64,000 nucleotides of DNA from Nitrospinaceae bacterium (GTDB taxonomy: Bacteria > Nitrospinota > Nitrospinia > Nitrospinales > Nitrospinaceae), in assembly GCA_965223665.1 (NCBI GenBank), contig OZ245011.1, positions 3,456,001 through 3,520,000 on the forward strand, read 5' to 3'. The notes under the pieces were generated by a model, which was not told the DNA's origin, made no database searches, and saw only the letters and a list, made by a program, of their open reading frames with translations. Below, in pieces: positions 3,551 through 46,133 of the stretch. The position numbers were made by a program, and so were the translations under genes. Within the stretch, counting starts at the first letter, position 1, and each line of letters opens with the position of its first letter.

Positions 3551-3859
3551 ATGGTTCAAAAGAATAATATATTTCTAGGTATCTTCTTGCTTGGGCTTAC
3601 CGGTGTAATGATCGGTTGGGTGGTTGAAAGCCCATTCCTATCGGTGGTGGCGGGGGCCTTAGGGACAGGGATTGGTGGACTGCTGGGCTGGCTGGGGGGG
3701 AAAAGGTATTTGATCACGATTTGTTTAGGTGTAGTGATTGGAACGGCACTTGGATACCAAACCGGGGATCAAGATATATTAATTATGGCGGCAGGATCGG
3801 GTGGTGCTATAGCTGGATTTCTAGCCAATTTTATTGAATTGTTTGTCTCCAAAAAATGA
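3551..3859 (+). CDS. Small Gly-rich membrane protein (about 4 TM segments)
   Basis: Hydrophobic GxxxG-rich helices; stop overlaps the next ATG (ATGA). Confidence 0.7.
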   Translation: MVQKNNIFLGIFLLGLTGVMIGWVVESPFLSVVAGALGTGIGGLLGWLGGKRYLITICLGVVIGTALGYQTGDQDILIMAAGSGGAIAGFLANFIELFVSKK

Positions 3860-4575
3860 AAATTAATTTTTATAAAACATTAACATGGGTTGCTATTATT
3901 ATCCTCCACACTTTGGTTTTATCTTCGACTGCTATATCCCAAACTAAGGATATGGTTAAAATTCCTGCTGGAGAATTTTTAATGGGATCACAAGAGTCTG
4001 AAGATGAATTCCCACACCCTGTTTTCGTTTCCGAGTTTTGGATTGATATTTACGAGGTCACTCAAAAACAATTTCAACAAGTGATGGGGGATAATCCTTC
4101 AGACTTTTATGCAGAGGCTTCCCCGGTAGATCAGGTAACCTGGTTTGAAGCGAAGGAGTATTGCCAGAAAATAAATAAACGACTTCCCACCGAAGCTGAA
4201 TGGGAAAAAGCGGCAAGAGCGGGTTCGACGACACGCTATTATTGGGGAGATAAAATTTTAAATGATTTTGCATGGTATTGGGGTAACTCAGAGAAAAGAA
4301 CACATCCTGTCGGACAAAAAAAACCTAATGCTTTCGGTTTGTATGACATGCTTGGAAATGTGTGGGAGTGGACAGGTGATTATTATATAGATAATTATTA
4401 CCCAGTAAGTCCTAAAAAGGATCCGAAGGGCCCTTTTACCAGTAAATATCGAAGTATTAGAGGGGGATCCTGGCGTGACCTGGAAGGTTTCCTCCGTACT
4501 ACCCGACGAAATTATGAACTCCCTTCGGCACGACTTAACCACATTGGGTTTCGTTGCGTCAAATCAAGTTTATGA
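3856..4575 (+). CDS. Exported FGE-sulfatase (SUMF1-like) domain protein
   Basis: Signal peptide; FLMGS, RLPTEAEWEKAARAG, GLYDMLGNVWEW, RGGSW, GFRC. Confidence 0.9.
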   Translation: MKINFYKTLTWVAIIILHTLVLSSTAISQTKDMVKIPAGEFLMGSQESEDEFPHPVFVSEFWIDIYEVTQKQFQQVMGDNPSDFYAEASPVDQVTWFEAKEYCQKINKRLPTEAEWEKAARAGSTTRYYWGDKILNDFAWYWGNSEKRTHPVGQKKPNAFGLYDMLGNVWEWTGDYYIDNYYPVSPKKDPKGPFTSKYRSIRGGSWRDLEGFLRTTRRNYELPSARLNHIGFRCVKSSL

Positions 4576-10793: not shown

Positions 10794-11588
10794 TTATGGC
10801 AAAGGGAGGACGGTACGAAATCCGTAAATATTATTTTTTACTGTGGGTAAATTTCTGGCTCTTGTAGTCGCTTTCACCTCATCAATATTATTAACCCAGG
10901 AGCCCCCCCTTAATACTTTCATTTGTTTAGGTTCAGGTCCTTCAGGGTCCAATTCCGGGCTGAATTTGTAATACTCGGGGTCATACCAATCCAGACACCA
11001 TTCCCAGACATTTCCGGCCATATTTAAAACTCCAAATGGACTGGCACCTGATTGATAATAGGTTGCAGGGGCGGTGAATTTATATCGATCTTCCATTCCG
11101 TAAATATTTACAAAAAACAAATTAAATCCTTTAGCCCATTTCTCTCCCCACGGGTATAACCTCCCGTCATTTCCTCGAGCAGCTTTTTCCCATTCCGCTT
11201 CTGTGGGAAGACGTCGTCCTTTCCAACGTGCGTAAGCCATGGCATCAAACCAACTGACACCAACTACGGGTTGGTCGGGTTGGTTAAACCGGTCATCATC
11301 CCAGTATTTGGGCACAGGATGATTGGTCGATTCTACAAATTGCTTATATTCAGAGTTGGAGACTTCGTATTTATCAATAAAGAATGCCGAAGTGAAAACA
11401 TAGTGCAGGGGTTTTTGGTCTTCTTCTCCACTGGCAGTTCCCATAGGAAAATAACCCTCAGGAATATAAATCATACCCTGTGGTGGTTCCGGGTTAGCAA
11501 ACCCAAAAGAAAAAAAACCAAAGACAAAAATAAAGCTTAGATTTAAGCAGAAAAATTTAAAAATAAATTTAAAGTGGTTTTGACTCAT
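10794..11588 (-). CDS. Exported FGE-sulfatase (SUMF1-like) domain protein
   Basis: PVVGVSWFDA, RLPTEAEWEKAARG, NMAGNVWEW, RGGSW, YGFR. Confidence 0.9.
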   Translation of the reverse strand: MSQNHFKFIFKFFCLNLSFIFVFGFFSFGFANPEPPQGMIYIPEGYFPMGTASGEEDQKPLHYVFTSAFFIDKYEVSNSEYKQFVESTNHPVPKYWDDDRFNQPDQPVVGVSWFDAMAYARWKGRRLPTEAEWEKAARGNDGRLYPWGEKWAKGFNLFFVNIYGMEDRYKFTAPATYYQSGASPFGVLNMAGNVWEWCLDWYDPEYYKFSPELDPEGPEPKQMKVLRGGSWVNNIDEVKATTRARNLPTVKNNIYGFRTVLPLP

Positions 11589-17602: not shown

Positions 17603-20137
17603 TTAATTAATTAAAGCAGGTTCGGGGGGAGTTTTCTCTTTTTCCAAGGATTTTTCTTTTGATGTTTCTGTGAAAATTTCGGGATATTCATAATCCTCAA
17701 AAACTTTCTTATATAATTCTTCAGAAACAGGAGTTTTAGAGAAGTTGATTTTCTTCATGATTTTAAACATGGTTAAGCCAAGTAGAAAGGCCGGCGGCAA
17801 ATATATCCAACCAGTACTTTCTCCAAACACCAACTTTGTAAAACCAATAATCAAGAGTATACCGGCAATTGAAGTCATCAGGGCGCATGCGAATCGTTTC
17901 CACGGAAATACGATATGATGTTTCTCATAGTTGAAGTACTTCACTTCTTCCGGCCACCAACCAAATGGTAAAGCACGCGCGAAAAATCTTCTACGAACCT
18001 CTACAGGTTCAGGTTTCGTGAGCAAAGTAGCGATGATCCAGAAGGGCATGACGGTAAAAACACTAAGAATTAGACGAAAGGACTCTTCCTCTAAATACCA
18101 GGTATCTCCAATCGTTGCTGCAAAAAGATAATGATATATTTTTATCCCGTAAGTTAATTCAAAATCCCAAATTGATTGATGAGCCCACAGCCAAGCTACT
18201 AAGTTATCAATAGGGCCAAATCCATGTAGAAGTACATAAGCTATTAAGGATCCTATGAGCCCTGCCATAATGGAATAACTGTTAATTCTCCAATACCAAA
18301 ACATGCATACGGTGGGAAGTCCTGCGCCGGCTAGGAGTTCAATTGCGAGTTCCCATCCCGTCAATAAATTATCTACATGGAGAACATAGTATAGTAAAAG
18401 AAAAATTAAACCGAGAATGGCAACTTTTCCAACAACAAACTCTTCCAACGGAGATGATTTCTTTTTTCGGAGATTACTCCACAACTCCATAATGTAAGAT
18501 CCACCATGAAAGAGTTGACTGGTCATTGTCGACATATAAGCGCCATAAGCTACCGAAACGAAAAGTCCACCTAAAATGCCGGATCCAAATAATATAAACC
18601 CAGAGATTGCTACAGCTGCATCACCATTTAAATGGACCCCATATGAGTGAATGGAAGGAACTAAGAATAATGATGCGATTCCTAAAACTGTCCAGGGGTG
18701 GTGCCTTAAGGCAAAGGAAAAGGTGGAATGAAATAGACCTGCGCCCACAGCATGAAATTCATTTTTACAATCTTTAAGTCTTTGAACTGCATAACCTCCT
18801 ATAAATGATCCCAATAGCGGTTGCAATCCCAGTAGAGCAATTAACCCTATAATTGAAAAAAATAGTTCATTGGAAAAAGGGTAATGCAAAATCAAACTTC
18901 CCATGGTGTCGGGATTGGTGACACGCTGTCCGGTCAAAAATGCGCAAATCTCAGTTTTTTCGATTCCATGGTGATCTAAAGAAGCAGTGTAGGATTTTAA
19001 ATCTGAGAATTTTTCAGAAGGATACATTCGATCATCCAAGAGACCTGCGGATTGCAGTTGGGCAATTGTTTCCTTGTTTTTAAACCTCCAGGGTTTGGGT
19101 ATAAAATGTTTTTCCCAAAACTGATAAAAGGGATCCTGTTCATTCATATCAACAGCGTTTAGAATAATCCTTTTGCTTAATCCAGTGATCTTTGGATCAA
19201 AAATATATTTATTGGGAAGGTGAGAGGATTCTATAAGGATTTGATTTTTAATCAAACGGTTGGGATCTGCGGTGCTTTTTTGGAAAAGTGCTTTTTCGAT
19301 TTTCACTAATGAGTTACGCGTCTCGCCACTAGCGAGGATAGCTTTGCCCTTATTAACAGTTCCTTTAACACCAAAGTCGTCCCAGATATTGATCATTGCA
19401 CCAAAAAACATAAATGCGGCTAGTATAATTTGGGCATTATCTGCTAAGACCATTCCACGAAATCCAGAAAAAAGACTGAAAACCACTACCGGGACAAGCA
19501 TTGCAAAAAATATAAAGGGTTCCGCAGCAAATGTTATGGACGCATTTAGGGGATAAACTTCACCATGTGGCAAAAAATGTGGAAAAATATCTAATCCCTC
19601 AAATGTGAAATAAACTCCGGAAATATTAAATCCCAAAAGTACTACCATTACCATGGCCTTGCACACTGTTCCCATAACAGCGTTGTTTCTTGCAAGAATT
19701 TCTACCAGGCTTTGGATAACCATGAGAACTCTGGCTCTTTGGCCTCCGAAACGAAGTAATGGAAGGGCAGCGTCTGCATAAAGCCGAAGCCTTACCCAAA
19801 TTTCTGCGTATAAGAAGGTACCTAGAGAAAAGGCGATCAATCCGCTTTGCCAAAACCAGTTCCAACCCACTCCACCTTTTGAACGGATAAAGTCTCCCAC
19901 CACAAAGGGTGTATCACTGGCAAACATGGTGGCGATGATAGCCCCACCGGCTACAAACCAAGTGAAGCGTTTAGATTCTTCGACAACAGAGTATGTTTGT
20001 TTTTTGGTTTTTTGCCCAATTCGCCACCGGTAATAGGCATAGGCCATTAAAATTCCAACAAAGGCGAAAAAGGTCCATTGACCACTGGGGCCTAAGTAGA
20101 CGTTTTCAGCAGGTAATGGGGCTTGAATGGAGTTCAC
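17603..20137 (-). CDS. Sodium:solute symporter (SSF) family protein with a large soluble insertion
   Basis: WFVAGGAIIATMFASDTP, GWNWFW, AYMSTMTSQL, WYWRIN; hydrophilic insert at about aa 255-415. Confidence 0.8.
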   Translation of the reverse strand: MNSIQAPLPAENVYLGPSGQWTFFAFVGILMAYAYYRWRIGQKTKKQTYSVVEESKRFTWFVAGGAIIATMFASDTPFVVGDFIRSKGGVGWNWFWQSGLIAFSLGTFLYAEIWVRLRLYADAALPLLRFGGQRARVLMVIQSLVEILARNNAVMGTVCKAMVMVVLLGFNISGVYFTFEGLDIFPHFLPHGEVYPLNASITFAAEPFIFFAMLVPVVVFSLFSGFRGMVLADNAQIILAAFMFFGAMINIWDDFGVKGTVNKGKAILASGETRNSLVKIEKALFQKSTADPNRLIKNQILIESSHLPNKYIFDPKITGLSKRIILNAVDMNEQDPFYQFWEKHFIPKPWRFKNKETIAQLQSAGLLDDRMYPSEKFSDLKSYTASLDHHGIEKTEICAFLTGQRVTNPDTMGSLILHYPFSNELFFSIIGLIALLGLQPLLGSFIGGYAVQRLKDCKNEFHAVGAGLFHSTFSFALRHHPWTVLGIASLFLVPSIHSYGVHLNGDAAVAISGFILFGSGILGGLFVSVAYGAYMSTMTSQLFHGGSYIMELWSNLRKKKSSPLEEFVVGKVAILGLIFLLLYYVLHVDNLLTGWELAIELLAGAGLPTVCMFWYWRINSYSIMAGLIGSLIAYVLLHGFGPIDNLVAWLWAHQSIWDFELTYGIKIYHYLFAATIGDTWYLEEESFRLILSVFTVMPFWIIATLLTKPEPVEVRRRFFARALPFGWWPEEVKYFNYEKHHIVFPWKRFACALMTSIAGILLIIGFTKLVFGESTGWIYLPPAFLLGLTMFKIMKKINFSKTPVSEELYKKVFEDYEYPEIFTETSKEKSLEKEKTPPEPALIN

Positions 20138-22776
20138 TATAATTTAGGGTCCAAAATTTTAATTTGATTATTTTTTTTAAGATTATTCTTTTTAATGTCT
20201 GCTACAAATATTTTCATTTCATTTTCTTTATGTAAATTTAGAGCTTTCCCATTTAGCTGAATTTCTCTTTCTTGGACGTTAGAAGATTTTCTATAGATGA
20301 TCTCAATTGTTTTATTTTGGTAGACAGTTTGAAAATTGAAATTGTTTAACGGACTTGAGGGATCAGGCTGAATCCTTAAATAATTTATCTCCGGTCGAAA
20401 ACCGAATACATACCAAATTAGTATTTTAAGGAGAACATTTGAGCTCCCCGTTTGCCAATCGTTCATAGATTCACCATCCAATCCTTTGTGTGGATTGTTG
20501 ATGTAAGAATTGGGAATAACGAAGGGAGTCAAGTTGTAATTTTTATGAATTGAAGTAAACGGTAATAGTTTTTCAAGTTGAATCCAGGCTCTTCTCGATT
20601 TTCCGATTTGAAATAAAGACCATACTCCAAATAATGTCGCATGATTATAAGTGGCTCCATTTTCTGCAGTTCCTTTGGGCAGTCTGGGAATTCGACCAAA
20701 CCAATGTTCAGTCCCTCTTTCAAAAGCGGGATAGAAGGTTCGAAGGCCATATTTATCATCAAGGACATCGTAAGCTTCTAATATTTGAGGCAACAAGTTT
20801 ATATTGGATTTATCCACAGCATCTTTGTGGGCTCCACTTAATATCCAATATGCATTGCTGGTTAAGCTGTGACGTGATTTGCCGTCTGGGTCCTTGAAGC
20901 CACCTACTGTGTACTTCGAATCGTCTCCAAATCCATGAACAACTCTTTTAGAATTTCCTTTACGAAGAATGGAATTTTGGGTTAAACCTTTAAAAAGTTT
21001 TTGTTTTGATTTTCTGTAAAGAGATATTTCTTTTTTATATTTAGACCCTGAATCCAGCCAATTTAAAACCTCCAACATATCATTGCAGTTTTGATACAAT
21101 TGCAAACTTCCCATGACAGTAGTTCCAGTCCCAAATTTACTTCCCTTCTTTTTTGTAAAGCCTAATCCATCAAGGGCATCATTCCAATCACCGTACAAAG
21201 CCTTTAGCAGATTTGTTTTGGGATTAATATTTTTAATCAGATAAGATAAAATCTTGATTAAATGATCTAAAATCGTATCCGTTTTCTTAATAGGAGCAAT
21301 AGTTCCAAGATATGGATTGTCGTCTATGATTTGATGGTAGCCGACTTCTTGAAATAAAAAAGAACGGTCTCCAGAAACTTTAATGTATTCCACTACAGTT
21401 TTAATTACCCACAATCCTTGATCGATAAATTCTCTAGTATCTGCAACAAGGCTTCCGGGAAGGTATTGTCGTAGGCATCTTCCATTGGGGCAGGTGTAGC
21501 TCAATCCTTCAATAATTTTTCTTTTTGCCATTTTAGGAGAAAAGTAAATGTAAGCCTCCAAAGCTTGAAAAACATCTCTAATACCTACCAATGACCTAGG
21601 CGCTAATTGCATGTAACCCTTAATTTCCGAGCAAACGGTTACCTGATGCTGAATATTTTTTAAAAAGGGAAAGAAATCTTCATCGTTGATTTGAGTATTT
21701 TTAGTATCAAAACCACCCTTAAGTTTAAAAGTCTGTTTATTTTTGCTTGATAATGATTTTATCTTTGAAATGGATTTGTCAATTGATGTCGTAGAAATTG
21801 GTTTGGCTGAAAGTTTTGCGAGTTCATTTGGATTTTTTATCCTTTGATAAACGAAATCGAACCTTGCCGTTGAGGTTGTTTTTGATTCAAATAAAATGGA
21901 ATTAGAAAAAATTCCTTTATCGTTAAAAACAGTCTCTAATCTTTGATTGGGAAAATGAATTCTATTTAAGGCGGCGGCATTATTTAAATTTCGGTTATTT
22001 CCTCCTACAAATTCATTTCGGGAAGTTGTGGTTTCGTAATCCAAGAACCGTGTTTCACTAAATGTGCAGCGGCCACGAAGTAAGGATAAATGGGTTAAGG
22101 AGGTATTGCGATCAGGATCTTCATAAACAATCAAAGAACTTGCAGGCAAATAAATCTGTGATGAATTCTTCTTTTTAAAGTTATGGGTGGTTTTGGTGGT
22201 CAAGAACCAACGATCCTCGTCAGACTTACTCAAATCGTTTTTTTCATGAGGAGAAAAATATGTCAGGAGTCTGCAGTTAGATCTGGGTCGCTTAAAAGAA
22301 ATAAAAAAAGAAAACAATAACTGGTTTTTAGAGTTTACCGTTACCCTTACGATTGCATTGATATCCTGCCACTCCGTGAAATAATAAGCTGCAAAGAGAC
22401 TAAAAATAGTGTGTCTTTTTGCGCCATCTTTTAAAAAAGGAACAGGGAGTAGTGAAATTACTTTTGTCCCGGTATTGAGAAAAAAAGCAATTTGAGGTTC
22501 TTCTCCTTCCTTCGCAACAGAAAATAATTGATGCAATCCATCGGAAGCGTATATATACCCATTGGCCTGGCACCAAAGAGTAAATCCGTTTGTGCCATAG
22601 ACAAATCGTCCAGGCGGTGAGGGTCCCCAAATAGCTCCTCCACCTTTCTGTAGAAAAGCATATTTTCTAGCTGAATTTTCTTTGTTTACCCGGACTTTGG
22701 AGGCTGCAATAACATCAGAAGGAAATGGCAAAGAAAGTTTTCTAGATTTTTCTTGATGGATTCCGAAATGGAGCAC
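20137..22776 (-). CDS. GH94-family glycoside phosphorylase
   Basis: GIRDVFQ, GDWNDALD (catalytic Asp region), GTAENGATYNHA, WQTGSS; GTG start. Confidence 0.85.
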   Translation of the reverse strand: MLHFGIHQEKSRKLSLPFPSDVIAASKVRVNKENSARKYAFLQKGGGAIWGPSPPGRFVYGTNGFTLWCQANGYIYASDGLHQLFSVAKEGEEPQIAFFLNTGTKVISLLPVPFLKDGAKRHTIFSLFAAYYFTEWQDINAIVRVTVNSKNQLLFSFFISFKRPRSNCRLLTYFSPHEKNDLSKSDEDRWFLTTKTTHNFKKKNSSQIYLPASSLIVYEDPDRNTSLTHLSLLRGRCTFSETRFLDYETTTSRNEFVGGNNRNLNNAAALNRIHFPNQRLETVFNDKGIFSNSILFESKTTSTARFDFVYQRIKNPNELAKLSAKPISTTSIDKSISKIKSLSSKNKQTFKLKGGFDTKNTQINDEDFFPFLKNIQHQVTVCSEIKGYMQLAPRSLVGIRDVFQALEAYIYFSPKMAKRKIIEGLSYTCPNGRCLRQYLPGSLVADTREFIDQGLWVIKTVVEYIKVSGDRSFLFQEVGYHQIIDDNPYLGTIAPIKKTDTILDHLIKILSYLIKNINPKTNLLKALYGDWNDALDGLGFTKKKGSKFGTGTTVMGSLQLYQNCNDMLEVLNWLDSGSKYKKEISLYRKSKQKLFKGLTQNSILRKGNSKRVVHGFGDDSKYTVGGFKDPDGKSRHSLTSNAYWILSGAHKDAVDKSNINLLPQILEAYDVLDDKYGLRTFYPAFERGTEHWFGRIPRLPKGTAENGATYNHATLFGVWSLFQIGKSRRAWIQLEKLLPFTSIHKNYNLTPFVIPNSYINNPHKGLDGESMNDWQTGSSNVLLKILIWYVFGFRPEINYLRIQPDPSSPLNNFNFQTVYQNKTIEIIYRKSSNVQEREIQLNGKALNLHKENEMKIFVADIKKNNLKKNNQIKILDPKL

Positions 22777-22899: not shown

Positions 22900-23907
22900 T
22901 TAGACTTTTTTGGGATAGTTTGATCTATTCATTTTAGACGAATGGGGCCATAGACGGCATAAGCCGGCAACTAAACTTCCCAGGATGCAATGCGTTAAGG
23001 CAGAGATAGCACCCGGAACGGTTGCAAGTCCAAAGTTAGTAAAATTACCCCGGGCTAACTCGGTTGCCAATCCAGAATTTTGCATTCCTACTTCTACCGA
23101 AACGGTTCTTGAGTTATTTTCATCAGATCCTAAAGTTTTGGAAATTATATAACCTAAGAAAAACCCTAAGCAGTGCAAAGTTAATATGGAAAAAATTAAT
23201 AATAATCCACTTTCAAGAATGGCTTGTTTTTTGACAGCCAATATAAAGTCCACAATAAACACGATAGATAAGACTGCCAAAAGAGGGGTGTATGGAGTAA
23301 TTTTTTTTACCCACCTATGGCAAAAATGGTTTAGAAGAATTCCAACCGTAACAGGCAAGATGACTACTTGGAACGTGTTAATTAAAAGACCCAAAGTATC
23401 TACATGTATGCCTACCCCAGTCAAATCTTGAGAGAGTGATTCAATTAGCCAAGTAGTTAGAAGGGGAGTCGCTAAAACAGCAATCAAGGTAGAAAAGGTT
23501 GTAAGGGTAACTGATAGAGCGACATTTAGTCGTGCGATAAAGCACACTACATTGGAGGCTGTCCCGCCAGGGCAGCAAGCCACGAGAACTAATCCAATAA
23601 CAAAGTCGAGAGGTAGGTGGAACAGTTTTGAGATGAAATAACCTAATACAGGCATGATTAAATACTGAAGTCCGACTCCGATTAACACGGCTTTAGGAAT
23701 TTCTAATATTCTTAAAAAGTCTTTATAGGTTAAAGTCAATCCCATACTGAGCATAATGATGCCCAGGAAAAATGGAATCCAGGTGGGTTTAAACCATGTG
23801 GCGGTTGCAGGTTCCCAAAATGCCAAAACCGCTCCAGTGATTACCCAAAGGGGAAAAGCGTTGGCAAGGGTTGTGAAAACACGTTGGATTTTGTTCAGGG
23901 AAAACAA
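22900..23907 (-). CDS. Bile acid:sodium symporter (BASS) family transporter
   Basis: LGIIMLSMGLTL, ACCPGGTASNV, EVGMQNSGLA. Confidence 0.92.
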   Translation of the reverse strand: MFSLNKIQRVFTTLANAFPLWVITGAVLAFWEPATATWFKPTWIPFFLGIIMLSMGLTLTYKDFLRILEIPKAVLIGVGLQYLIMPVLGYFISKLFHLPLDFVIGLVLVACCPGGTASNVVCFIARLNVALSVTLTTFSTLIAVLATPLLTTWLIESLSQDLTGVGIHVDTLGLLINTFQVVILPVTVGILLNHFCHRWVKKITPYTPLLAVLSIVFIVDFILAVKKQAILESGLLLIFSILTLHCLGFFLGYIISKTLGSDENNSRTVSVEVGMQNSGLATELARGNFTNFGLATVPGAISALTHCILGSLVAGLCRLWPHSSKMNRSNYPKKV

Positions 23908-24561
23908 TCAAGGTTTTTGTGCAATGATACTGGAATAGGCTTGATGCGCTCCATCATCGAATGCTTGGTATCGAATGATTTTAAAATCTTTAAAGACTTT
24001 AAGTAATTCATTGGTTTCTAAAGCCCATTGACGCCGAAAACCGGAATTATATTTGAGATAATCCACATTATAAGTTTCTACGACTACCATCCCACCGGGT
24101 TTTAAGGCTTCCTTAATTTGATCAAATAAATCCCTTTGCATGTAGTACATCATTAAAATGACATCATAGGAATTTTTTTCTAACGATGCTTTTTCTAAAT
24201 CGACCACTTGAGTTTTAATAGAAACTCCATTTTCTTTTGCTAATCGATGGGCTTTTTGTAGGCCTACCTCAGAAATATCTAACCCTGTGACGTCGAATCC
24301 ATGCGCTGCTAAAAAAACTCCATTTCGACCCTCTCCCATTGCAATATCAAGTGCTTTTCCTTTGGGCAATAGATTTAAGTTTTCCTTGAGAAACGGAACA
24401 GGATTTTTGCCAAAAAGGTATACTTCATTTTCGTATTTGGCATCCCAGCGTTTTTTGTCCCTGGGTTTAGCTTCTAGTTGGAAAGTAAAGAATAAAGAAA
24501 ATACTAACACCCAAACCAAAAAGTTTGAGCATATAAGAAGATTTTTAGAAAGGAAGTGCAT
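23908..24561 (-). CDS. Class I SAM-dependent methyltransferase (TehB-like) with N-terminal hydrophobic segment
   Basis: ALDIAMGEGRNG, GLDIS, LKPGG. Confidence 0.88.
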   Translation of the reverse strand: MHFLSKNLLICSNFLVWVLVFSLFFTFQLEAKPRDKKRWDAKYENEVYLFGKNPVPFLKENLNLLPKGKALDIAMGEGRNGVFLAAHGFDVTGLDISEVGLQKAHRLAKENGVSIKTQVVDLEKASLEKNSYDVILMMYYMQRDLFDQIKEALKPGGMVVVETYNVDYLKYNSGFRRQWALETNELLKVFKDFKIIRYQAFDDGAHQAYSSIIAQKP

Positions 24562-24715: not shown

Positions 24716-25255
24716 ATGCTTAATAAAGTGAGATTTTTTTGTAAGGTTTTTTTTATTTTTCAGTTTGGTTTTTTTTTCCTTACTTCCCCTATAATGGCGG
24801 AAAATATTTCTAAAAAGCCTGTAAATGTTTCATCAGATCAGAGGTTTCAGGATTTTGGAGATGGAACCATTTTAGATTCCAGTAATCATCTGATGTGGAT
24901 GAAGCAAGATTATTGGCAGATAGAGAAAAAATGGGTGAATTGGTATACGGCTCAAGAATTTGTCCAGCGAATGAATAACAAAAAATTTGCAGGATATAAT
25001 GATTGGAGATTGCCGACTGCTAAAGAAGCCCATGCTTTATATGATCGCCGCCGTCGAAATATTGATAAGGATGGAGATAAGATTTTTATTGATCGGATTT
25101 TTCCCAAAGGATCGGGGTGGGGAACATGGACACAAGAAGAAAAAGGTAGTCAGGCAATTGTTGTTTCATTTAAGGATGAAGGGGGGCAAGCTTATCAGGA
25201 TAAAATCAAGGGTCCTGATGCCTTTTTACGGCTGGTGCGAGGACCTGTTTCTTGA
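24716..25255 (+). CDS. Exported DUF1566 (Lcl-type) domain protein
   Basis: RFQDFGDGTILD..LMW, AGYNDWRLPT..E, RLVR; start placed at the ATG 7 nt after GGAG. Confidence 0.82.
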   Translation: MLNKVRFFCKVFFIFQFGFFFLTSPIMAENISKKPVNVSSDQRFQDFGDGTILDSSNHLMWMKQDYWQIEKKWVNWYTAQEFVQRMNNKKFAGYNDWRLPTAKEAHALYDRRRRNIDKDGDKIFIDRIFPKGSGWGTWTQEEKGSQAIVVSFKDEGGQAYQDKIKGPDAFLRLVRGPVS

Positions 25256-25320
25256 TTTAGTAATTGAATGATTGGTTTATCTGAATTATAAAATTCGAAA
25301 ATTTAATAAAGGAGACCGTC

Positions 25321-25836
25321 GTGCGAATATTAAACTCAGTAATCTTATCTATTATGATAATTTTTGCCGCAACATCAAATTCGTTAGCTGATGAAACTCC
25401 AGGACCCTTAGCAGGCTATACGATTCATGTCACTGCACCTCATATGATGGATGGAGAAGTAGTGGGCCCTTTTCACCATTATTGCAAGCCTATCAATAAA
25501 GATGTAATCCAATGTATTTTATTTGAATCCACAGACCCGAATGCAAGAATGACCGAGGTCGAATATATGGTTTCAAAAGACTTGGCTCGAAAAGTCATTC
25601 CTGGTTGGTCTCATAAAGCAAATTGGCATGATCATAAGCAGGAAATTGAAACAGGCCGAGTAGCCGTTATTCATCCTACCGATGAAAAAGAAGTAAAATC
25701 TTTAGTGGATCATGTAGCAAAAACTGATGGTATTATTTTTCACTTGTGGCCCAAAGATGCACCAATTCCTGATGGAACAGTAGGGATTGCCCAATCTGTA
25801 GGACATTGGGAAGCTTTGCATGGAAAAGTAAAGTAA
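25321..25836 (+). CDS. Exported DUF1264/OBAP-family protein
   Basis: Signal peptide; HHYC, QCILFES..PNAR..EVEY, WHDH..E, FHLW; RBS AAGGAG. Confidence 0.82.
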   Translation: MRILNSVILSIMIIFAATSNSLADETPGPLAGYTIHVTAPHMMDGEVVGPFHHYCKPINKDVIQCILFESTDPNARMTEVEYMVSKDLARKVIPGWSHKANWHDHKQEIETGRVAVIHPTDEKEVKSLVDHVAKTDGIIFHLWPKDAPIPDGTVGIAQSVGHWEALHGKVK

Positions 25837-25865
25837 TGCCATTGAATTTTTAAATTAAATTGAAA

Positions 25866-26303
25866 ATGAATACTATAAGAAAGTTTTCCCCCATAATATT
25901 CTTATGGATTGCAGTGATTTTTCTAATTCAACCCGCTTCTGCATTTCACCCAAGCATTTATGAGCCGCGGGTTCCAAAAGAAGAACTTGAAAATATTCAG
26001 GAAATTGAAAGTCCCTTTGAGGAAACATCTGAAAATATTGAAAAAGGCAGAAAGATTTATTTTGGAAAAGGACTTTGTGTTACCTGCCATAGTAATAATG
26101 GAAAAGGAGTTTTATTACCTGGTCATTCACCCAGGAATTTTACTAATGTGAAATGGCAGGATTTAAGAACCGATGGTGAATTGATGTGGGTGCTGAAAAA
26201 TGGTAGTCCGGGAACAGGAATGCCGATTCGAGTGGGTAAGGTGATATCAGAAGAAGAAGGTTGGTATGTTATTCAATTTATTCGTACATTTAGGGGAAAA
26301 TAA
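25866..26303 (+). CDS. Monoheme c-type cytochrome
   Basis: Signal peptide, CVTCH, PRNFT, KNGSPGTGMP (axial Met). Confidence 0.9.
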   Translation: MNTIRKFSPIIFLWIAVIFLIQPASAFHPSIYEPRVPKEELENIQEIESPFEETSENIEKGRKIYFGKGLCVTCHSNNGKGVLLPGHSPRNFTNVKWQDLRTDGELMWVLKNGSPGTGMPIRVGKVISEEEGWYVIQFIRTFRGK

Positions 26304-26417
26304 AAATTAAGTCACTCTGGTATTTTTATTAGTGAACGTATTAAAATAAACTTGATTGGATAATAAAAATCCAAACCGAACTAATTATTTGAGAATACTT
26401 TCTAGGAGTTTGCAATT

Positions 26418-27419
26418 ATGCGAATAGCATTTAGCCTTATATTAGTCTTGGTTTTAGTATCCTGTAGTCATACCAAAATTCAGGAGCAAGACTCTTCATA
26501 TGAGCCGGTACCAAAAATGGCTTACCCTAAAAATAACCCTTGGTCAAAAGATAAAGAAGAGCTTGGTAAATTACTTTACTTTGACAAAAGACTATCCGGT
26601 GACAATTCAATAAGCTGTGCAACATGCCACGATCCTTCTAAGGGTTGGTCAGATGGATTACCTAGAACCATTGGTTTTGGGAATAAAGAATTGGGCCGAC
26701 ATTCCCCTACCATCATTAATAGTGGTTATTTTGAGGCACAATTCTGGGATGGGAGGGCGAATACTTTAGAAGAACAAGCCGTGGGACCCATTGCCGCTCC
26801 AGGAGAAATGAATCAAAATTTTGATGAATTAATAAAAGAACTTGGTGATATTCCAGAATATAAAAAAAGGTTTAATAAAGTATTTGGTTCATCGGGAATT
26901 TCTAAAGAAAACATTGCAAAAGCCATTGCCACATTTGAACGATCTGTGGTGTCTAAAAACTCCGCTTATGACAAATTTGCTAAAGGTGATCGGTCCGCTA
27001 TGTCAAAGGCTTCTGTTCGAGGAATGAAATTGTTTTTTGGTAAAGCCAAGTGCGGAATTTGCCATAATGGCCCCGTATTTACTGACAGTCAATTTCATAA
27101 CATTGGGGTAAAGCAGCATGGACCGCTTAAAGTAGACTTAGGTCGTTATAATGTTACTAAAGATAATTTCGATAAAGGAGCTTTTAAAACTCCAGGTTTA
27201 CGAAATATTTCCCAAAACCCACCCTATATGCATGATGGTAGTGAGGCGACCCTTAAGGAGGTTGTAGAATTTTATAATCGGGGTGGTGATGTAAAAGAAA
27301 ATTTGAGCCCGTTCATAACTCCATTAAATTTGAATGAGCAAGAGGTTATGGATGTGGTTGCCTTTCTTAAAGCTTTAGATGGAGAACCTTTGCAAATTAA
27401 GGCTCCTAAATTACCTTAG
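26418..27419 (+). CDS. Diheme cytochrome c peroxidase (bCcP/MauG family), lipoprotein
   Basis: Lipobox LVSC; CATCH and CGICH; FWDGRA; FKTPGLRNI; PYMHDG. Confidence 0.92.
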   Translation: MRIAFSLILVLVLVSCSHTKIQEQDSSYEPVPKMAYPKNNPWSKDKEELGKLLYFDKRLSGDNSISCATCHDPSKGWSDGLPRTIGFGNKELGRHSPTIINSGYFEAQFWDGRANTLEEQAVGPIAAPGEMNQNFDELIKELGDIPEYKKRFNKVFGSSGISKENIAKAIATFERSVVSKNSAYDKFAKGDRSAMSKASVRGMKLFFGKAKCGICHNGPVFTDSQFHNIGVKQHGPLKVDLGRYNVTKDNFDKGAFKTPGLRNISQNPPYMHDGSEATLKEVVEFYNRGGDVKENLSPFITPLNLNEQEVMDVVAFLKALDGEPLQIKAPKLP

Positions 27420-27431
27420 TGTTTTTCAAGG

Positions 27432-27938
27432 ATGAACTTTAAGGAGACTATTGTGTTAAAAATAATCAAAATTTTGTGGGTTGGGTTCACTCTTCTATTT
27501 TTGGCACTTTGTTCCACGGTATATGGGCAGAGTATTTTGAACAAAGAAGAACCTTCTGGAATTTGTCCGCAACCCCGAAAAACCCCCAAAGCTCCCGATG
27601 AATATTTAAAGGCTAAAAATCCATTAGAACCGACTTCAAAAAATATTCTTGCGGGTAAAACCTTGTTTATGTTTGATGCTAAACCTAGTGCTTGTAAAAT
27701 ATGTCATGGATTATCAGGAGATGGTTTGGGAATAATGTTTCGTCAAGTTCACCCGAAACCGAGAAATTTTACTTGTGTTTATACGATGGATAAATTACCA
27801 GATGGTCAATTGTTTTGGGTTATAAAGAATGGGTCTCCAGGGACGGCTATGCCCTCTTTTGATTATCTGGATGACAATGAGATTTGGCAATTGGTCCTTT
27901 ATTTGAGAAGTTTTGCGAAGAAAGATTGGAATTTATGA
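27432..27938 (+). CDS. Monoheme c-type cytochrome with an extra Cys pair
   Basis: GICPQ, CKICH, PRNFTC, KNGSPGTAMP. Confidence 0.9.
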   Translation: MNFKETIVLKIIKILWVGFTLLFLALCSTVYGQSILNKEEPSGICPQPRKTPKAPDEYLKAKNPLEPTSKNILAGKTLFMFDAKPSACKICHGLSGDGLGIMFRQVHPKPRNFTCVYTMDKLPDGQLFWVIKNGSPGTAMPSFDYLDDNEIWQLVLYLRSFAKKDWNL

Positions 27939-28525
27939 ACAAATGTTTTAATTTTAGATTAATTCGTTTACTAGGGAAGATTGGGTTTACAATTTTTATT
28001 TTTAGTCTCTTCTTTTATTGCCCTGAGGAAATGTTTGCTGAAGAAAAAATGGAATATTCCGATATTCAATTAATCATGCACCATGGGCGACCTCACGGAG
28101 GGCACCATGGCAGGCATTCTATGCATCATGGAATGGGTAGGAGGAGTCAGGGAATTTGCCCTCAAACTAGAACGACTGCGCATGCTCCGAGCGAAATAGG
28201 GTCTTTGAAAAACCCCTTAGAGTTAACTCGAGAAAATCTGGATCGGGGAGAGTCTCTGTTTCAACGAACTGCAGAACCAACTGCTTGTAAAATATGCCAT
28301 GGTCCTGAAGGTAATGGTTTTGGCATGATGGCTCAAGGGTTGTCACCTATGCCCAGGAATTTTACTTGTAAAGAGACGATGAACGAAATTGCAGATGGTC
28401 AAATGTTTTGGATCATAAAAAATGGTTCCCCCGGAACGGGGATGCCCGCTTTTAAACTTTTTCTCTCTGACGAAGAAATTTGGCAATTAATATTGTATAT
28501 AAGACAATTTTCAAAAAGTAATTGA
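27935..28525 (+). CDS. Monoheme c-type cytochrome with a His/Met-rich segment and an extra Cys pair
   Basis: ATGA overlap start; MHHGRPHGGHHGRHSMHHGM; GICPQ; CKICH; PRNFTC; GSPGTGMP. Confidence 0.9.
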   Translation: MNKCFNFRLIRLLGKIGFTIFIFSLFFYCPEEMFAEEKMEYSDIQLIMHHGRPHGGHHGRHSMHHGMGRRSQGICPQTRTTAHAPSEIGSLKNPLELTRENLDRGESLFQRTAEPTACKICHGPEGNGFGMMAQGLSPMPRNFTCKETMNEIADGQMFWIIKNGSPGTGMPAFKLFLSDEEIWQLILYIRQFSKSN

Positions 28526-28639
28526 AGCTTTGTTAGATGCTTACTTGGCGTTCTATTAGAGGATGGGAGGCGGAGGTAATTTATTCTGAGAAAGCTCAAA
28601 AATGTTTTTTTAGATAGGAAAAAATTTTTGTGTTTGTTA

Positions 28640-28663
28640 GGTTACTTTTAATTAAAAGCAACC
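28640..28663. promoter_or_regulatory. 24-bp near-perfect palindrome (terminator or operator) within the cytochrome cluster
   Basis: GGTTACTTTTAATTAAAAGCAACC followed by a T-rich stretch. Confidence 0.4.
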
Positions 28664-28804
28664 CTTTCTTTTGAGCAGTCTCGCCCTTAAACATTTGCTG
28701 ACCCTTGTAAAATCTTGTCATAGGAAAAGGTTTTCCCGGAAGCAAAAAATTGGGATCCGTCATTTAATACAAACCTGTAATTAATTTTATTTAGGAGGAT
28801 CCTT

Positions 28805-29821
28805 ATGAAAACATTTCTTCAGACCTGTCATTTAAAAATTACCGTGTTGCTTTTTTCATATTTAGTTTTTTTTGGCAGTGTGTCGAATTCCTGGGCAAAT
28901 AGTAACCAAGAAGCAGAAAATTTAATAAAAAATGTTTGCTCCTCCTGCCATCGGTTTTCAGGGACACCGGATTCCAAATTCAAATTGAAGGCACCTGATT
29001 TAATGTGGGGAGGGAATAAGTATCAAAGCGATTGGCTTCGTCGTTGGCTCCAAGGAAAAGAGGAAAATCTATACCCTAATAGTTACAGATGGGATCAGGG
29101 AGGTGGTTCGATAAAGCACATGGCATTGTCTGAAACCCAGGCAAATGCAATTGCAGAATATTTTGAGAAAAATTTACTGGATCCCCGAGTAAAGGAAAAT
29201 GCAATTGACCTTTCCAATTTTAGTGAAATGGAAAACCAATTTGGCGCTGAAATTTATAAAAAGTTTTCCTGTTTAGGGTGTCACCAAATAAAAGAAGAGG
29301 GAAAAAAAATTGGAGGGGCCATTAGTGCCAATCTCTATGACTCTGGAAACCGTTACAATGTGGATTGGCTTTATCGTTTTGCTTTAAATCCACAAGATTT
29401 TACTCCGCATAGTGGAGAATATTTGGCTGATTTAAGTGGATTGGGTGTTCGCTATATTGTGGGCTATTTAATGACTTTGGGGAAATCGGATTATAAATTT
29501 TTTGAACCCTGGAAAACAGAATATTTTAAAAAAGCGGATTCAAACCGAGGTGCTAAAGTTTATAAGAACTATTGTACGCAATGTCATGGCATGAAAGGAA
29601 AAGGGGATGGGCCAGGCGCTGCGGGATTAGACCCTAAGCCTGCCGTACACTCCGAGTTACCATTGAGTGATTATCCAGAAGACTACCTTTTTAACGTAAT
29701 TTACTATGGCGGAAAGAGTGTTGGAAAATCTCCTAATATGCCTGATTGGGGATTAACCTTGCCACCTCAAGATTTAGCTGATGTGATTGCTTATCTTCGA
29801 GCAACTTTTAAAGGTGAATAA
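28805..29821 (+). CDS. Triheme c-type cytochrome
   Basis: Signal peptide; CSSCH, CLGCH, CTQCH; SPNMPDW; RBS AGGAGG. Confidence 0.9.
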   Translation: MKTFLQTCHLKITVLLFSYLVFFGSVSNSWANSNQEAENLIKNVCSSCHRFSGTPDSKFKLKAPDLMWGGNKYQSDWLRRWLQGKEENLYPNSYRWDQGGGSIKHMALSETQANAIAEYFEKNLLDPRVKENAIDLSNFSEMENQFGAEIYKKFSCLGCHQIKEEGKKIGGAISANLYDSGNRYNVDWLYRFALNPQDFTPHSGEYLADLSGLGVRYIVGYLMTLGKSDYKFFEPWKTEYFKKADSNRGAKVYKNYCTQCHGMKGKGDGPGAAGLDPKPAVHSELPLSDYPEDYLFNVIYYGGKSVGKSPNMPDWGLTLPPQDLADVIAYLRATFKGE

Positions 29822-29833
29822 ACTGAATTGATT

Positions 29834-29872
29834 AAAAGGCGGCTCAATTATTTTACTTGAGTCGCCTTTTTA
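29834..29872 (+). terminator. Rho-independent terminator
   Basis: AAAAGGCGGCTCAA...TTGAGTCGCCTTTTT. Confidence 0.85.
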
Positions 29873-30007
29873 GCAATCTTCGGCATAGAGACTATTTTAT
29901 TGTTTGCAATGAAAGGATCAATGGGCGTTCTCCATGTCATTTCACTAAATTGATGATAAAATGAAAAACTTAAAATTTATCAGTTTGAATTATCTTTGGA
30001 TATAGAT

Positions 30008-30496
30008 ATGAAAAAAGTTTTTTTTCTATACTTTTTGTTTATTTTGATTTTGTTTGGTTGTGCGAATTCTGGTTCCAATACTGAAACCCAAATAGAAAAG
30101 CAAAGCATTAAGAAGGTTTCGCTAGGGGATTGCCCCCAAGCTCGAATAACACCTCAGGCACCTAAATCTATGTTGAAAGCTAAAAATCCAGCGGATGCCA
30201 AACCGGAGAATTTTAAAAAAGGGGAAAAATTGTATCAGGAAACTGCTACCCCTTTAGCATGTAAAACTTGTCATGGTGAAAATGGAAGTGGATTAGGTGA
30301 TCCGGACTTTGAAAGTACCCCCGCCGCACGCAATTTTACTTGTAATGAAACTATGCAAAAAATTTCAGATGGACAATTATTTTGGATCATAAAAAATGGT
30401 TCCCCAAACACTTCCATGCCCTCGCATGATAGCTTGCCTGATAAAGATATTTGGAATTTAGTGCTTTATATTCGTGGTTTTGCAAACTCTAATTAA
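30008..30496 (+). CDS. Monoheme c-type cytochrome lipoprotein with an extra Cys pair
   Basis: Lipobox LFGC; GDCPQ; CKTCH; ARNFTC; KNGSPNTSMP. Confidence 0.9.
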   Translation: MKKVFFLYFLFILILFGCANSGSNTETQIEKQSIKKVSLGDCPQARITPQAPKSMLKAKNPADAKPENFKKGEKLYQETATPLACKTCHGENGSGLGDPDFESTPAARNFTCNETMQKISDGQLFWIIKNGSPNTSMPSHDSLPDKDIWNLVLYIRGFANSN

Positions 30497-44984: not shown

Positions 44985-46133
44985 CTATTTAAAATTTTCT
45001 GGATATTCGAAAAAAATTCTTACCTCATCAATATGGTCTAAGTTCAGTAGGGTTTCTTTTAACTGATTAATTACTTTTGCCACCATTTTAGTTTCTTTGG
45101 AGTTCTCTTCTAAAAGAAATACTTCCAGAATGGTATGCCCTTTATGATGATGTGTTCGTAAACGCGTAAGTTTAGATATTCCTGGAAAAGAATCTACAAT
45201 AGGTTTGACCTTAGCTTCCAGTTCTCCGCGATTGTGCCAATATAGAGGTTCAAAGTCAGTGTCATCTTCTGTGTCAACATGGACTAGTACATCTTGTACA
45301 TTGTCGAAACGAGAAATTAAGTTTCTTCTAACCGATTCTGCTATTAAGTGACCCTCTGTAACGGAAGCCTCCTTATCGACTTGAACATGAACGTCCATAA
45401 GAATATCTGCTCCAATTTTTCTGGTTCTCAGGTTATGGGTTCGAATGACCCCTGGGATATTATTAATTTCATTTTCTAACCGTGTCGTATCATCTTCACT
45501 CAGACCCGTATCCATTAGATCGGCTAAACTACGAAAAGCAATATCATATCCAACTTTCAAAATCAGAATGGACACTACAATAGCAGCAATTGGATCCATA
45601 ACTGGATATCCAACCATTGCTCCTAAAATTCCTATTAATGCGGCAATTGAAGATACTGCGTCGGAACGATGATGCCAGGCGTTTGCAACAATGGAAGGGC
45701 TGTTTATTTTTTCACCGATGTTTCTGGTGTAATGGAATAACCCTTCATTGACTAGAATTGAAAAAATAGCAGCTATAAGGGAAAATACATTTGGAGTTTG
45801 ATAAGTTTTTTGTGCGATAGATTCTGAAGCTTCAAAGGCCAACCCCAAACCTGCCAGCATTATTATTGCCCCCACCACCGTAGCCCCTATAGATTCTGCT
45901 CGACCATGGCCATAAGGGTGATTTTCATCGGCAGGTTTTTGGGCGATTTTGTAGCTTATTAGTACCACTAAATCTGTTAACAAATCTGAAAAAGAATGAA
46001 TGCCATCGGCAACCATTGCTGAGCTTTTCCCAAAAATGCCTCCAGCAATTTTGAAAAGAGATAAAATTAGATTAGCAATGGCTCCAATAAAGATTACTTT
46101 TGTACCTTCTTCTGATTGTTTAAATTTTTCCAT
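44985..46133 (-). CDS. Cation diffusion facilitator transporter with C-terminal extension
   Basis: ADGIHSFSD, HPYGHGRAE, NAWHHRSD, DVLVHVD. Confidence 0.93.
   Translation of the reverse strand: MEKFKQSEEGTKVIFIGAIANLILSLFKIAGGIFGKSSAMVADGIHSFSDLLTDLVVLISYKIAQKPADENHPYGHGRAESIGATVVGAIIMLAGLGLAFEASESIAQKTYQTPNVFSLIAAIFSILVNEGLFHYTRNIGEKINSPSIVANAWHHRSDAVSSIAALIGILGAMVGYPVMDPIAAIVVSILILKVGYDIAFRSLADLMDTGLSEDDTTRLENEINNIPGVIRTHNLRTRKIGADILMDVHVQVDKEASVTEGHLIAESVRRNLISRFDNVQDVLVHVDTEDDTDFEPLYWHNRGELEAKVKPIVDSFPGISKLTRLRTHHHKGHTILEVFLLEENSKETKMVAKVINQLKETLLNLDHIDEVRIFFEYPENFK

Follow-up and report, generated by a model that had tools for sequence, protein, structure and literature searches.

A candidate periplasmic redox module of nitrite-oxidising bacteria centred on a DUF1264 protein and a monoheme cytochrome c

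Eight adjacent genes, g1–g8, occupy positions 24716 to 30496 of a 64,000-nucleotide stretch of a Nitrospinaceae genome (assembly GCA_965223665.1, contig OZ245011.1, positions 3,456,001 to 3,520,000; the whole stretch is referred to as the window), and among them a DUF1264-family protein is followed by several cytochromes c and a diheme enzyme. An original prediction, made from the DNA letters alone, described these genes as an exported, apparently undescribed multi-cytochrome redox island. Its structural claims are borne out. All eight open reading frames (ORFs) are present on the + strand, and their products have hydrophobic N-termini, as judged by eye from the translations. The two lipoboxes it named are seen as lipobox-like LVSC in g4 and LFGC in g8, with a weaker LALC in g5 (by eye), and its nine CxxCH motifs in six proteins are distributed over g3 (1), g4 (2), g5 (1), g6 (1), g7 (3) and g8 (1). 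These nine motifs fall within the cluster's 1,744 aa, and none occurs in the 46 remaining window ORFs that reach 120 aa or more (16,846 aa).

The first gene, g1 (24716..25255), encodes an exported DUF1566/Lcl_C-domain protein (Pfam PF07603, 78.9 bits vs cutoff 34.9), and g2 (25321..25836) encodes an exported protein of 171 aa with 12 His, belonging to the DUF1264/OBAP (oil-body-associated protein) family (Pfam PF06884). Next comes g3 (25866..26303), a monoheme c-type cytochrome with CVTCH and a Met in GSPGTGMP, starting at ATG 25866 or alternatively at TTG 25860. The diheme bCcP/MauG-family lipoprotein g4 (26418..27419; CATCH, CGICH) precedes two monoheme cytochromes c, g5 (27432..27938; CKICH; CPQ...NFTC subfamily) and g6 (27935..28525; CKICH), the latter with a conserved His/Met-rich N-terminal tail, MHHGRPHGGHHGRHSMHHGMG. 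The series ends with a triheme cytochrome c, g7 (28805..29821; CSSCH, CLGCH, CTQCH), and a monoheme cytochrome c lipoprotein of the CPQ...NFTC subfamily, g8 (30008..30496; CKTCH). Apart from g4, the window cytochromes (g3 and g5–g8) match Cytochrom_C or Cytochrome_CBB3 in Pfam. Intergenic gaps from g1 to g8 are 65, 23, 114, 12, -4, 279 and 174 bases; the value of -4 uses ATG 27935, most likely the true g6 start, which overlaps the g5 stop by 4 bases, rather than TTG 27884.

Between positions 24000 and 31500, promoter-like sites are fewer than in shuffled sequence (13 vs 23.6) and terminator-like sites are at chance level (8 vs 6.2), both being uninformative on operon limits; a scan of the whole window against Rfam gave no match. 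The window has a G+C content of ~37% and carries the housekeeping genes pntAB, priA, tolQRAB-pal, efp, radA and ffh. A Nitrospinaceae metagenome-assembled genome (MAG), represented by locus L001, is collinear with window positions 15323-35813 at 84% nucleotide identity and repeats the eight-gene order, with 77-92% identity between the proteins; the window is therefore regarded as part of the chromosome of a nitrite oxidiser in the Nitrospinaceae. An origin in Leptospira, to which the low G+C, DUF1566 and an Lsa25 match had pointed, was rejected because L001 and the other loci place the window in Nitrospinaceae.

Related loci (L001-L080) were the best 80 of 428 stretches encoding a g2 relative, with one genome per species, and locus counts given below refer to these 80. 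Grouped by title, they include 48 Nitrospinota, 20 Nitrotoga-type, 8 Nitrospirota and 3 Gemmatimonadota loci, with one further locus each labelled Gammaproteobacteria, Alphaproteobacteria and 'uncultured bacterium'; to judge from gene content, two of the short contigs, bearing the labels Bacteroidota and Alphaproteobacteria, seem to be mis-binned. Both here and in the protein collection the g2 relatives come almost all from nitrite oxidisers, those named in the protein collection being from Nitrospinota, Candidatus (Ca.) Nitrotoga, Nitrospira and one gammaproteobacterial MAG.

The conserved core of the locus is DUF1264 and the monoheme cytochrome g3 only. Of 78 assessable loci (L055 and L079 were set aside because both contigs stop 136 bases past DUF1264), 65 have a g3 orthologue directly downstream of DUF1264 on the same strand, and the distance is 225 bases or less in 62 of those 65. 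Pairs of this kind occur in Nitrospinota, Ca. Nitrotoga, Nitrospirota and one gammaproteobacterial MAG. Clustering of all neighbours showed that g3 and g7-like cytochromes alone recur across lineages within 6 kb of DUF1264. All eight genes are found together only in L001, L005 and L047. The g1 gene lies upstream in 23 of the 80 loci, all Nitrospinota, and is split from DUF1264 by 2-3 kb of other genes in several of them (in L009 by a histidine kinase and a response regulator); it is a syntenic neighbour in Nitrospinaceae, outside the conserved core. Conservation of the neighbourhood, which the original prediction had named as a check, was thus found for the DUF1264-g3 adjacency and, in three loci, for the eight-gene order, but not for the DUF1566 and peroxidase genes.

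The two core proteins also share a history. Their identities to the window proteins covary over the 65 pairs (r = 0.90), and the DUF1264 tree has two clades, one placing Nitrotoga beside Nitrospinota on short branches and the other nesting ten marine Nitrospina sequences among Nitrospirota. Since g3 tracks DUF1264 so closely and the DUF1264 tree crosses phyla in this way, the pair has moved as a unit between nitrite oxidisers. Chance or inherited gene order hardly explains the adjacency, because the other neighbours differ completely across lineages. On these grounds g3 is the dedicated partner of DUF1264, and the two probably form a working redox pair. Co-folding of DUF1264 (residues 24-171) with g3 (27-145) and heme gave a score of 0.00, which, being without controls, has no bearing on binding.

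Variants of the pair were seen as well. The contig of L001 carries a second DUF1264 copy (L029:10001-10549), 66% identical to g2 and without adjoining cytochrome, with a ferritin-like gene and a sigma-54 activator upstream. No common theme was found among the neighbours of this second copy and of the Gemmatimonadota loci. In two loci an ORF of 171-173 aa without Pfam family is found directly downstream of DUF1264 (L018:10552-11067 and L037:10563-11084); it lies between DUF1264 and g3 in L018, and L037 is without g3.

The g2 protein scores 77.7 bits against PF06884 (cutoff 25), with coverage of profile positions 4-138 of 171. With the DUF1264/OBAP family it shares H52, H53, C55, C65, E81, H103, H105 and E108, whereas it is exported, shorter, lacks the C-terminal part of longer members, is paired with a c-type cytochrome and is concentrated in nitrite oxidisers. 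Over 29 members with 24-72% identity to g2, residues H53, C55, C65, E81 and H103 are invariant and H52, W102, H105 and E108 are conserved in at least 90%; the 22 close g2 relatives have 40 invariant positions, including H36, H41, H53, C55, C65, H103, D104, H105 and H141. To judge from these patterns, g2 is a probable metalloprotein in which the family-conserved His and Glu probably form a binuclear metal site. A binuclear metal site in a deep pocket was predicted for another DUF1264 member in a preprint that lists the fold as new (10.64898/2026.10.18.759936).

The AlphaFold2 model of g2 (predicted local distance difference test, pLDDT, 78.6) gave no Foldseek match to the PDB at E<=1e-3, a PDB sequence search returned chance-level ankyrin-repeat matches only, and matches in the ESM Atlas were to DUF1264 clusters only. 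A HMMER search retrieved 592 representatives at E <= 1e-3 among 1.84 billion. Two of its products are fusions: P0208 (1100 aa), an exported protein, combines two cupredoxins whose copper-site motifs have Cys, His and Met with a beta-propeller, DUF1264 and cupredoxin-like C-terminal parts, and P0238 (549 aa) joins a beta-propeller to DUF1264. An earlier search for longer g2 relatives by shared words had returned no fusions, which is weak evidence. Because an electron-carrier domain is fused to DUF1264 in P0208, redox work outside the cytoplasm is independently supported.

The monoheme cytochromes share RNFT and DG[EQ][LM].W[VI][LI]KNGSP.T.MP, in agreement with the motifs pointed out earlier (RNFT, DGQ/EL.W.IKNGS and MP). 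Pairwise identity is 46-56% among g5, g6 and g8 (48-56% for g5 vs g6 or g8) and 31-36% between these and g3. In a tree of 127 monoheme domains from the surveyed loci, the g3 clade (66 domains, 63 loci) is apart from the g5/g6/g8 clade (61 domains, support 1.0), of which 50 domains have an extra Cys in NFTC matched by the Cys of an N-terminal CPQ. Exclusive orthologue clades were resolved for g5 (12 loci), g6 (20 loci, support 0.94) and g8 (5 loci), and a His-rich stretch before CPQ, with 2-10 His each, is kept in the g6 orthologues of those 20 loci. The local duplication proposed from the sequence is therefore real as paralogy but old, because paralogues that each have their own orthologue clade must predate species divergence.

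The triheme g7 has a SoxX-like middle domain and a cbb3/c551-type C-terminal domain by its Pfam and NCBIfam matches, and similar proteins are found 6 kb or less from DUF1264 in 30 of 80 loci (13 Nitrospinota, 16 Nitrotoga, 1 Nitrospirota). Tetraheme chains composed of a g7-like part and a g5/6/8-type domain are encoded in Nitrospinales (L034:10863-12323, +), Nitrotoga (L038:8022-9551, -) and Nitrospirae (L076:15888-17321, +), the L034 gene standing directly after DUF1264. In all three, the C-terminal domain motifs CPQPR...PRNFTC...DGQ..WII match g8. Since single-chain tetraheme forms exist in three lineages, the window g7 and g8 are the two halves of one unit.

The best NCBIfam match of g3 is cytochrome 579 (NF033864), which is also among the top matches for g5, g6, g8 and the tetraheme fourth domain; scores are 72.5 bits for g3, 45.8 for g5, 49.9 for g6 and 43.8 for g8, all below the cutoff of 280. 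Leptospirillum cytochrome 579, like the proteins described here, is a small exported monoheme with several paralogues, whereas the hosts here are neutrophilic nitrite oxidisers, not acidophilic iron oxidisers. Cytochrome 579 has a modified heme, a band at 579 nm and an octameric state, and has been interpreted as a general conduit for electrons in the periplasm (PMC8126622).

The diheme g4 was described originally as a diheme peroxidase. Membership of the bCcP/MauG family is clear (Pfam CCP_MauG, 199 bits), and its best PDB match is the N. europaea peroxidase 1iqc (6.6e-62, compared with only ~1e-21 for solved MauG, where the phmmer match ends at residue 288); the canonical axial Met is nonetheless missing. 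As in bacterial diheme cytochrome c peroxidases, there are two CxxCH motifs and full-length similarity to 1iqc, and the inter-heme Trp region, AQFWDGRA, aligns to 1iqc without a single difference. In contrast to canonical peroxidases, g4 has no axial Met on the electron-transfer heme; the Met of 1iqc (VETMGR) is aligned to Tyr (VEFYNRGG), which is kept, without nearby Met, in 10 of 10 orthologues having a C-terminus. The alignment to 3o5c gaps this region differently and likewise offers no Met, so the Tyr/Met equivalence is insecure. Residue 16 after the first heme His, which we take to be the position of the distal His of canonical peroxidases, is Phe in g4 and F, N, H or D in orthologues.

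Tyr is reported at this axial position in all MauGs, and Met or His in peroxidases (PMC7567364). The best NCBIfam models for g4, both matched over the full length and both below cutoff, are MauG (TIGR03791, 286.5 bits vs 443.85) and MbnH (TIGR04039, 230.6 bits vs 362.85). The conserved Tyr of g4 at the candidate axial-ligand position may correspond to the Tyr ligand of the six-coordinate heme in MauG (Tyr294 in P. denitrificans). The g4 sequence is nearer to peroxidases, and no methylamine dehydrogenase or MbnP-like family was matched among 12 proteins scanned in and around the cluster. Judged by the Tyr that replaces the N. europaea axial Met, g4 looks MauG-like; it may modify proteins or be an unusually ligated peroxidase, and is filed here under neither family. 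Only 11 of the 80 loci, all from Nitrospinota, have g4, which is a lineage-specific addition, not part of the conserved system. The earlier view of cytochromes linking DUF1264 to the peroxidase consequently applies to one lineage's extension and fails for the core, while that of a periplasmic multi-cytochrome locus built around DUF1264 holds.

Neighbourhoods differ between lineages. Nitrotoga-type loci begin with a multicopper oxidase, followed by a diheme c, a monoheme c and a NirK-like protein and then by DUF1264, g3, CusB (with a heavy-metal-binding domain) and CusA; the oxidase and NirK-like genes are found in 15, CusB in 17 and CusA in 16 of the 20 loci, and the diheme and monoheme proteins align to g7 domains at 29% and 36% identity. 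Twelve Nitrospinota loci have, directly upstream of DUF1264 and co-oriented with it, a GAF-HisKA_3 kinase and a NarL-type regulator; sigma-54 activators adjoin DUF1264 in 7 loci and lie near it in Nitrospirota. Assignment of these regulators as NorR- or DosS-type sensors of nitric oxide (NO) was dropped, as their scores all fell short of the named NCBIfam cutoffs. In 5 loci of three lineages, DUF1264 has a Cu/Zn superoxide dismutase gene ~2 kb or less away.

The Nitrotoga arrangement, in which the DUF1264-g3 pair follows a multicopper oxidase, two cytochromes and a NirK-like gene, resembles ncgABC-nirK of Nitrosomonas and Nitrobacter, where NcgA is presumably a multicopper oxidase and NcgB and NcgC presumably cytochromes. 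The window cluster, in contrast, is without multicopper oxidase or NirK, such genes adjoining DUF1264 only in Nitrotoga-type loci. ncgABC and nirK have been tied to consumption of nitrogen oxides (NOx) and to nitrite tolerance (PMC5080386). NirK is present in most Nitrospinota, and norBC in none of the genomes analysed in the same study (PMC10839748), and N. gracilis is described as lacking superoxide dismutase and catalase (PMC3578206).

In the N. marina proteome a protein of 176 aa annotated as DUF1264 has a normalised spectral abundance factor of 0.12-0.18, against 0.16-0.25 for NxrA; the product of the adjoining gene is absent from the proteome table (PMC8115632). Among the proteins induced most strongly at low O2 in the same study are a multicopper oxidase of 1627 aa (16-fold) and a Cu/Zn superoxide dismutase (28-fold), protein kinds that also adjoin DUF1264 in some of the loci surveyed here. 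The term 'DUF1264' was not found in the N. moscoviensis transcriptome supplements or in the supplementary text of PMC10839748.

The explanation favoured here, with a probability of roughly 0.45, is that the locus encodes a periplasmic redox module of nitrite oxidisers consisting of a DUF1264 metallo-oxidoreductase and its dedicated cytochrome g3, extended in this lineage by the MauG-like g4, the monohemes g5 and g6, and the triheme g7 with its split-off fourth domain g8. We infer the metal, the substrate and the direction in which electrons flow as follows. Electrons would pass from the respiratory c-type pool filled by nitrite oxidation to g7/g8 and g5/g6, then to g3 and from g3 to the metal site of DUF1264, which would reduce a small periplasmic oxidant, with NirK-made NO or oxygen-derived species as first choice; the same wire could run backwards if the substrate is oxidised. 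The diheme g4 might consume H2O2 using the same cytochromes or oxidatively mature a neighbouring protein. Handling of reactive oxygen species (ROS), of N-oxides and of metals by redox chemistry, the roles suggested originally, all remain candidates; the ranking, with NO and ROS first and copper second, is a guess, and it is somewhat doubtful that the substrate is NO or ROS.

A more specific version holds that DUF1264 and its cytochrome are the NO-handling enzyme of NirK-bearing nitrite oxidisers without known NO reductase, reducing NO or oxidising it back to nitrite with the c-type cytochrome as partner, and that they represent a new type of periplasmic metalloenzyme passed horizontally among Nitrospinota, Nitrotoga and Nitrospirota. 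This is distinctly unlikely. If true, it would mean an enzyme with a fold without solved relative, abundant in at least one cultured species and spread like the lifestyle based on periplasmic nitrite oxidoreductase.

Several points weigh against the redox module as favoured. The link to NO is drawn from the Nitrotoga gene order and the absence of known NO reductases, the regulators beside DUF1264 are generic, with none above a named NCBIfam cutoff, and copper handling fits the copper-related neighbours at least as well. No g3 follows DUF1264 in 13 of the 78 assessable loci (L010, L022, L029, L034, L037, L046, L052, L054, L056, L059, L066, L071 and L080), 8 of which have no cytochrome match within 10 kb; L010 is counted among these 8, despite the diheme g4 that follows its DUF1264. 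A tetraheme g7-like cytochrome replaces g3 in three of the 13 (L034, L052, L054), and several are second DUF1264 copies in genomes that also have a complete pair. Metal binding by DUF1264 is a prediction. The DUF1264 family includes plant and fungal members without a cytochrome partner, so that its chemistry may not be redox and the cytochrome may be a mere co-regulated neighbour. For bacterial members, the functional statements found amount to the computed binuclear site of the preprint, and the DUF1264 protein of N. marina had no significant low-O2 response (adjusted p 0.54; PMC8115632).

Periplasmic copper handling is the strongest of the rival explanations, though rather unlikely. In this case DUF1264 would bind copper and, with g3, either oxidise Cu(I) or reduce Cu(II) so that copper enzymes can be supplied, and both the g6 tail rich in His and Met and the MbnH-like g4 would serve the same task. 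It would account for the multicopper-oxidase and NirK-like genes before and the Cus genes after the Nitrotoga pairs, the Cu/Zn superoxide dismutase genes near DUF1264 in three lineages, the g6 tail kept over 20 loci, and the six to seven conserved His, which would fit a dicopper site. The match of g4 to the MbnH model points the same way, MbnH being the builder of the MbnP copper site (PMC11951088); g4 nevertheless remains under the MbnH cutoff, and the eight window proteins gave no match to an MbnP-like or other copper-chaperone family. Cus and multicopper-oxidase genes, moreover, adjoin the pair in Nitrotoga only, the neighbours in Nitrospinota and Nitrospirota being regulators and cytochromes, and the cupredoxin fusion P0208 supports general redox work as well as copper because cupredoxins are electron carriers. 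A ferrous-iron conduit as in Leptospirillum, with DUF1264 as a di-iron ferroxidase feeding cytochrome-579-like carriers, is extremely unlikely. Cytochrome 579 is a top NCBIfam match of all four monohemes and of the tetraheme fourth domain, the His/Glu constellation would be typical of di-iron sites, and a ferritin-like gene is near the second DUF1264 copy in L029, but the scores (44-82 bits) are far below cutoff, no outer-membrane cytochrome 572-like gene was seen, there is no Leptospirillum record among the best 80 of 428 loci or the named matches, and the hosts are nitrite oxidisers.

Two further explanations were considered. The locus may be an ordinary one, with respiratory periplasmic cytochromes c beside an H2O2-scavenging peroxidase and with DUF1264 and DUF1566 as unrelated neighbours, as the loose linkage of DUF1566, the much closer match of g4 to solved peroxidases than to solved MauG, the general-conduit reading of cytochrome 579, the nearest named monoheme relative (PMC8126622), and the listing of cytochrome c peroxidase under ROS defence in Nitrospinota genome papers (PMC3578206, PMC10839748) would suggest. 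It is improbable in view of the DUF1264-g3 adjacency kept across lineages with otherwise different neighbours, the lack of g4 in 69 of 80 loci and the missing axial Met. Less probable again, and very unlikely, is a locus centred on g4 as a MauG-type maturase, using H2O2 or O2 to form a protein-derived cofactor from Trp, Tyr or His in DUF1264 or a neighbouring cytochrome. Such a role would agree with the invariant Tyr in the 10 orthologues, Tyr being the residue reported for all MauGs where peroxidases have Met or His (PMC7567364), with MauG and MbnH as best full-length models, and with the unusual heme and post-translational changes reported for cytochrome 579 relatives (PMC8126622). The Tyr/Met equivalence is insecure, however, given the differing 3o5c alignment, g4 scores below both family cutoffs, and no mauA/mauB-like or MbnP-like substrate gene was found in the cluster. 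Most genomes having both DUF1264 and g3 do without g4, which is therefore not needed for either to function.

Elsewhere in the window, a TehB-like S-adenosylmethionine methyltransferase with a hydrophobic N-terminal segment (23908-24561, -) is kept beside an SBF-family transporter (22900-23907) and the cluster in 20 Nitrospinota loci. Two abutting ORFs of 844 and 879 aa (17603-20137 and 20137-22776, both -) have no NCBIfam match at E <= 1e-10; the former resembles a polytopic membrane protein and the latter is 84% identical in L001. Two paralogous FGE-sulfatase/GldK-like proteins are encoded at 3856-4575 (+) and 10794-11588 (-), and genes of this type are found 6 kb or less from DUF1264 in five other Nitrospinota loci, including L008, with one in L018. 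A cation-diffusion-facilitator transporter (44985-46133, -) has the magnetosome proteins MamB and MamM as best specific NCBIfam matches, below cutoff, and a NarK-type nitrate/nitrite transporter of the major facilitator superfamily (52495-53910, -; 306.1 vs cutoff 311.7) fits a nitrite oxidiser.

No description of the DUF1264-cytochrome pair was found in the literature, in keeping with the claim of an apparently undescribed system; as listed, none of the DUF1264 papers concerns nitrifiers, and the match listed for OBAP with nitrite is on a plant. In the N. marina proteome table DUF1264 appears as an annotation line only (PMC8115632). Periplasmic enzymes that have their own cytochrome are known as a general kind; this enzyme family is undescribed, as are its fold and its confinement to nitrite oxidisers.

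Nitrite oxidisers are the source of nearly all nitrate on Earth. Gaps in the understanding of these organisms include their periplasmic carriers, the reason why NirK is kept, and the handling of NO and ROS without the usual enzymes (PMC3578206, PMC10839748). The DUF1264-g3 gene pair, which is adjacent in three unrelated nitrite-oxidiser lineages, exchanged between them and abundant in one proteome, is a concrete candidate for filling these gaps. Its function, if shown, would be the first for bacterial members of a family that has so far been known only from plant oil bodies and as a DUF.

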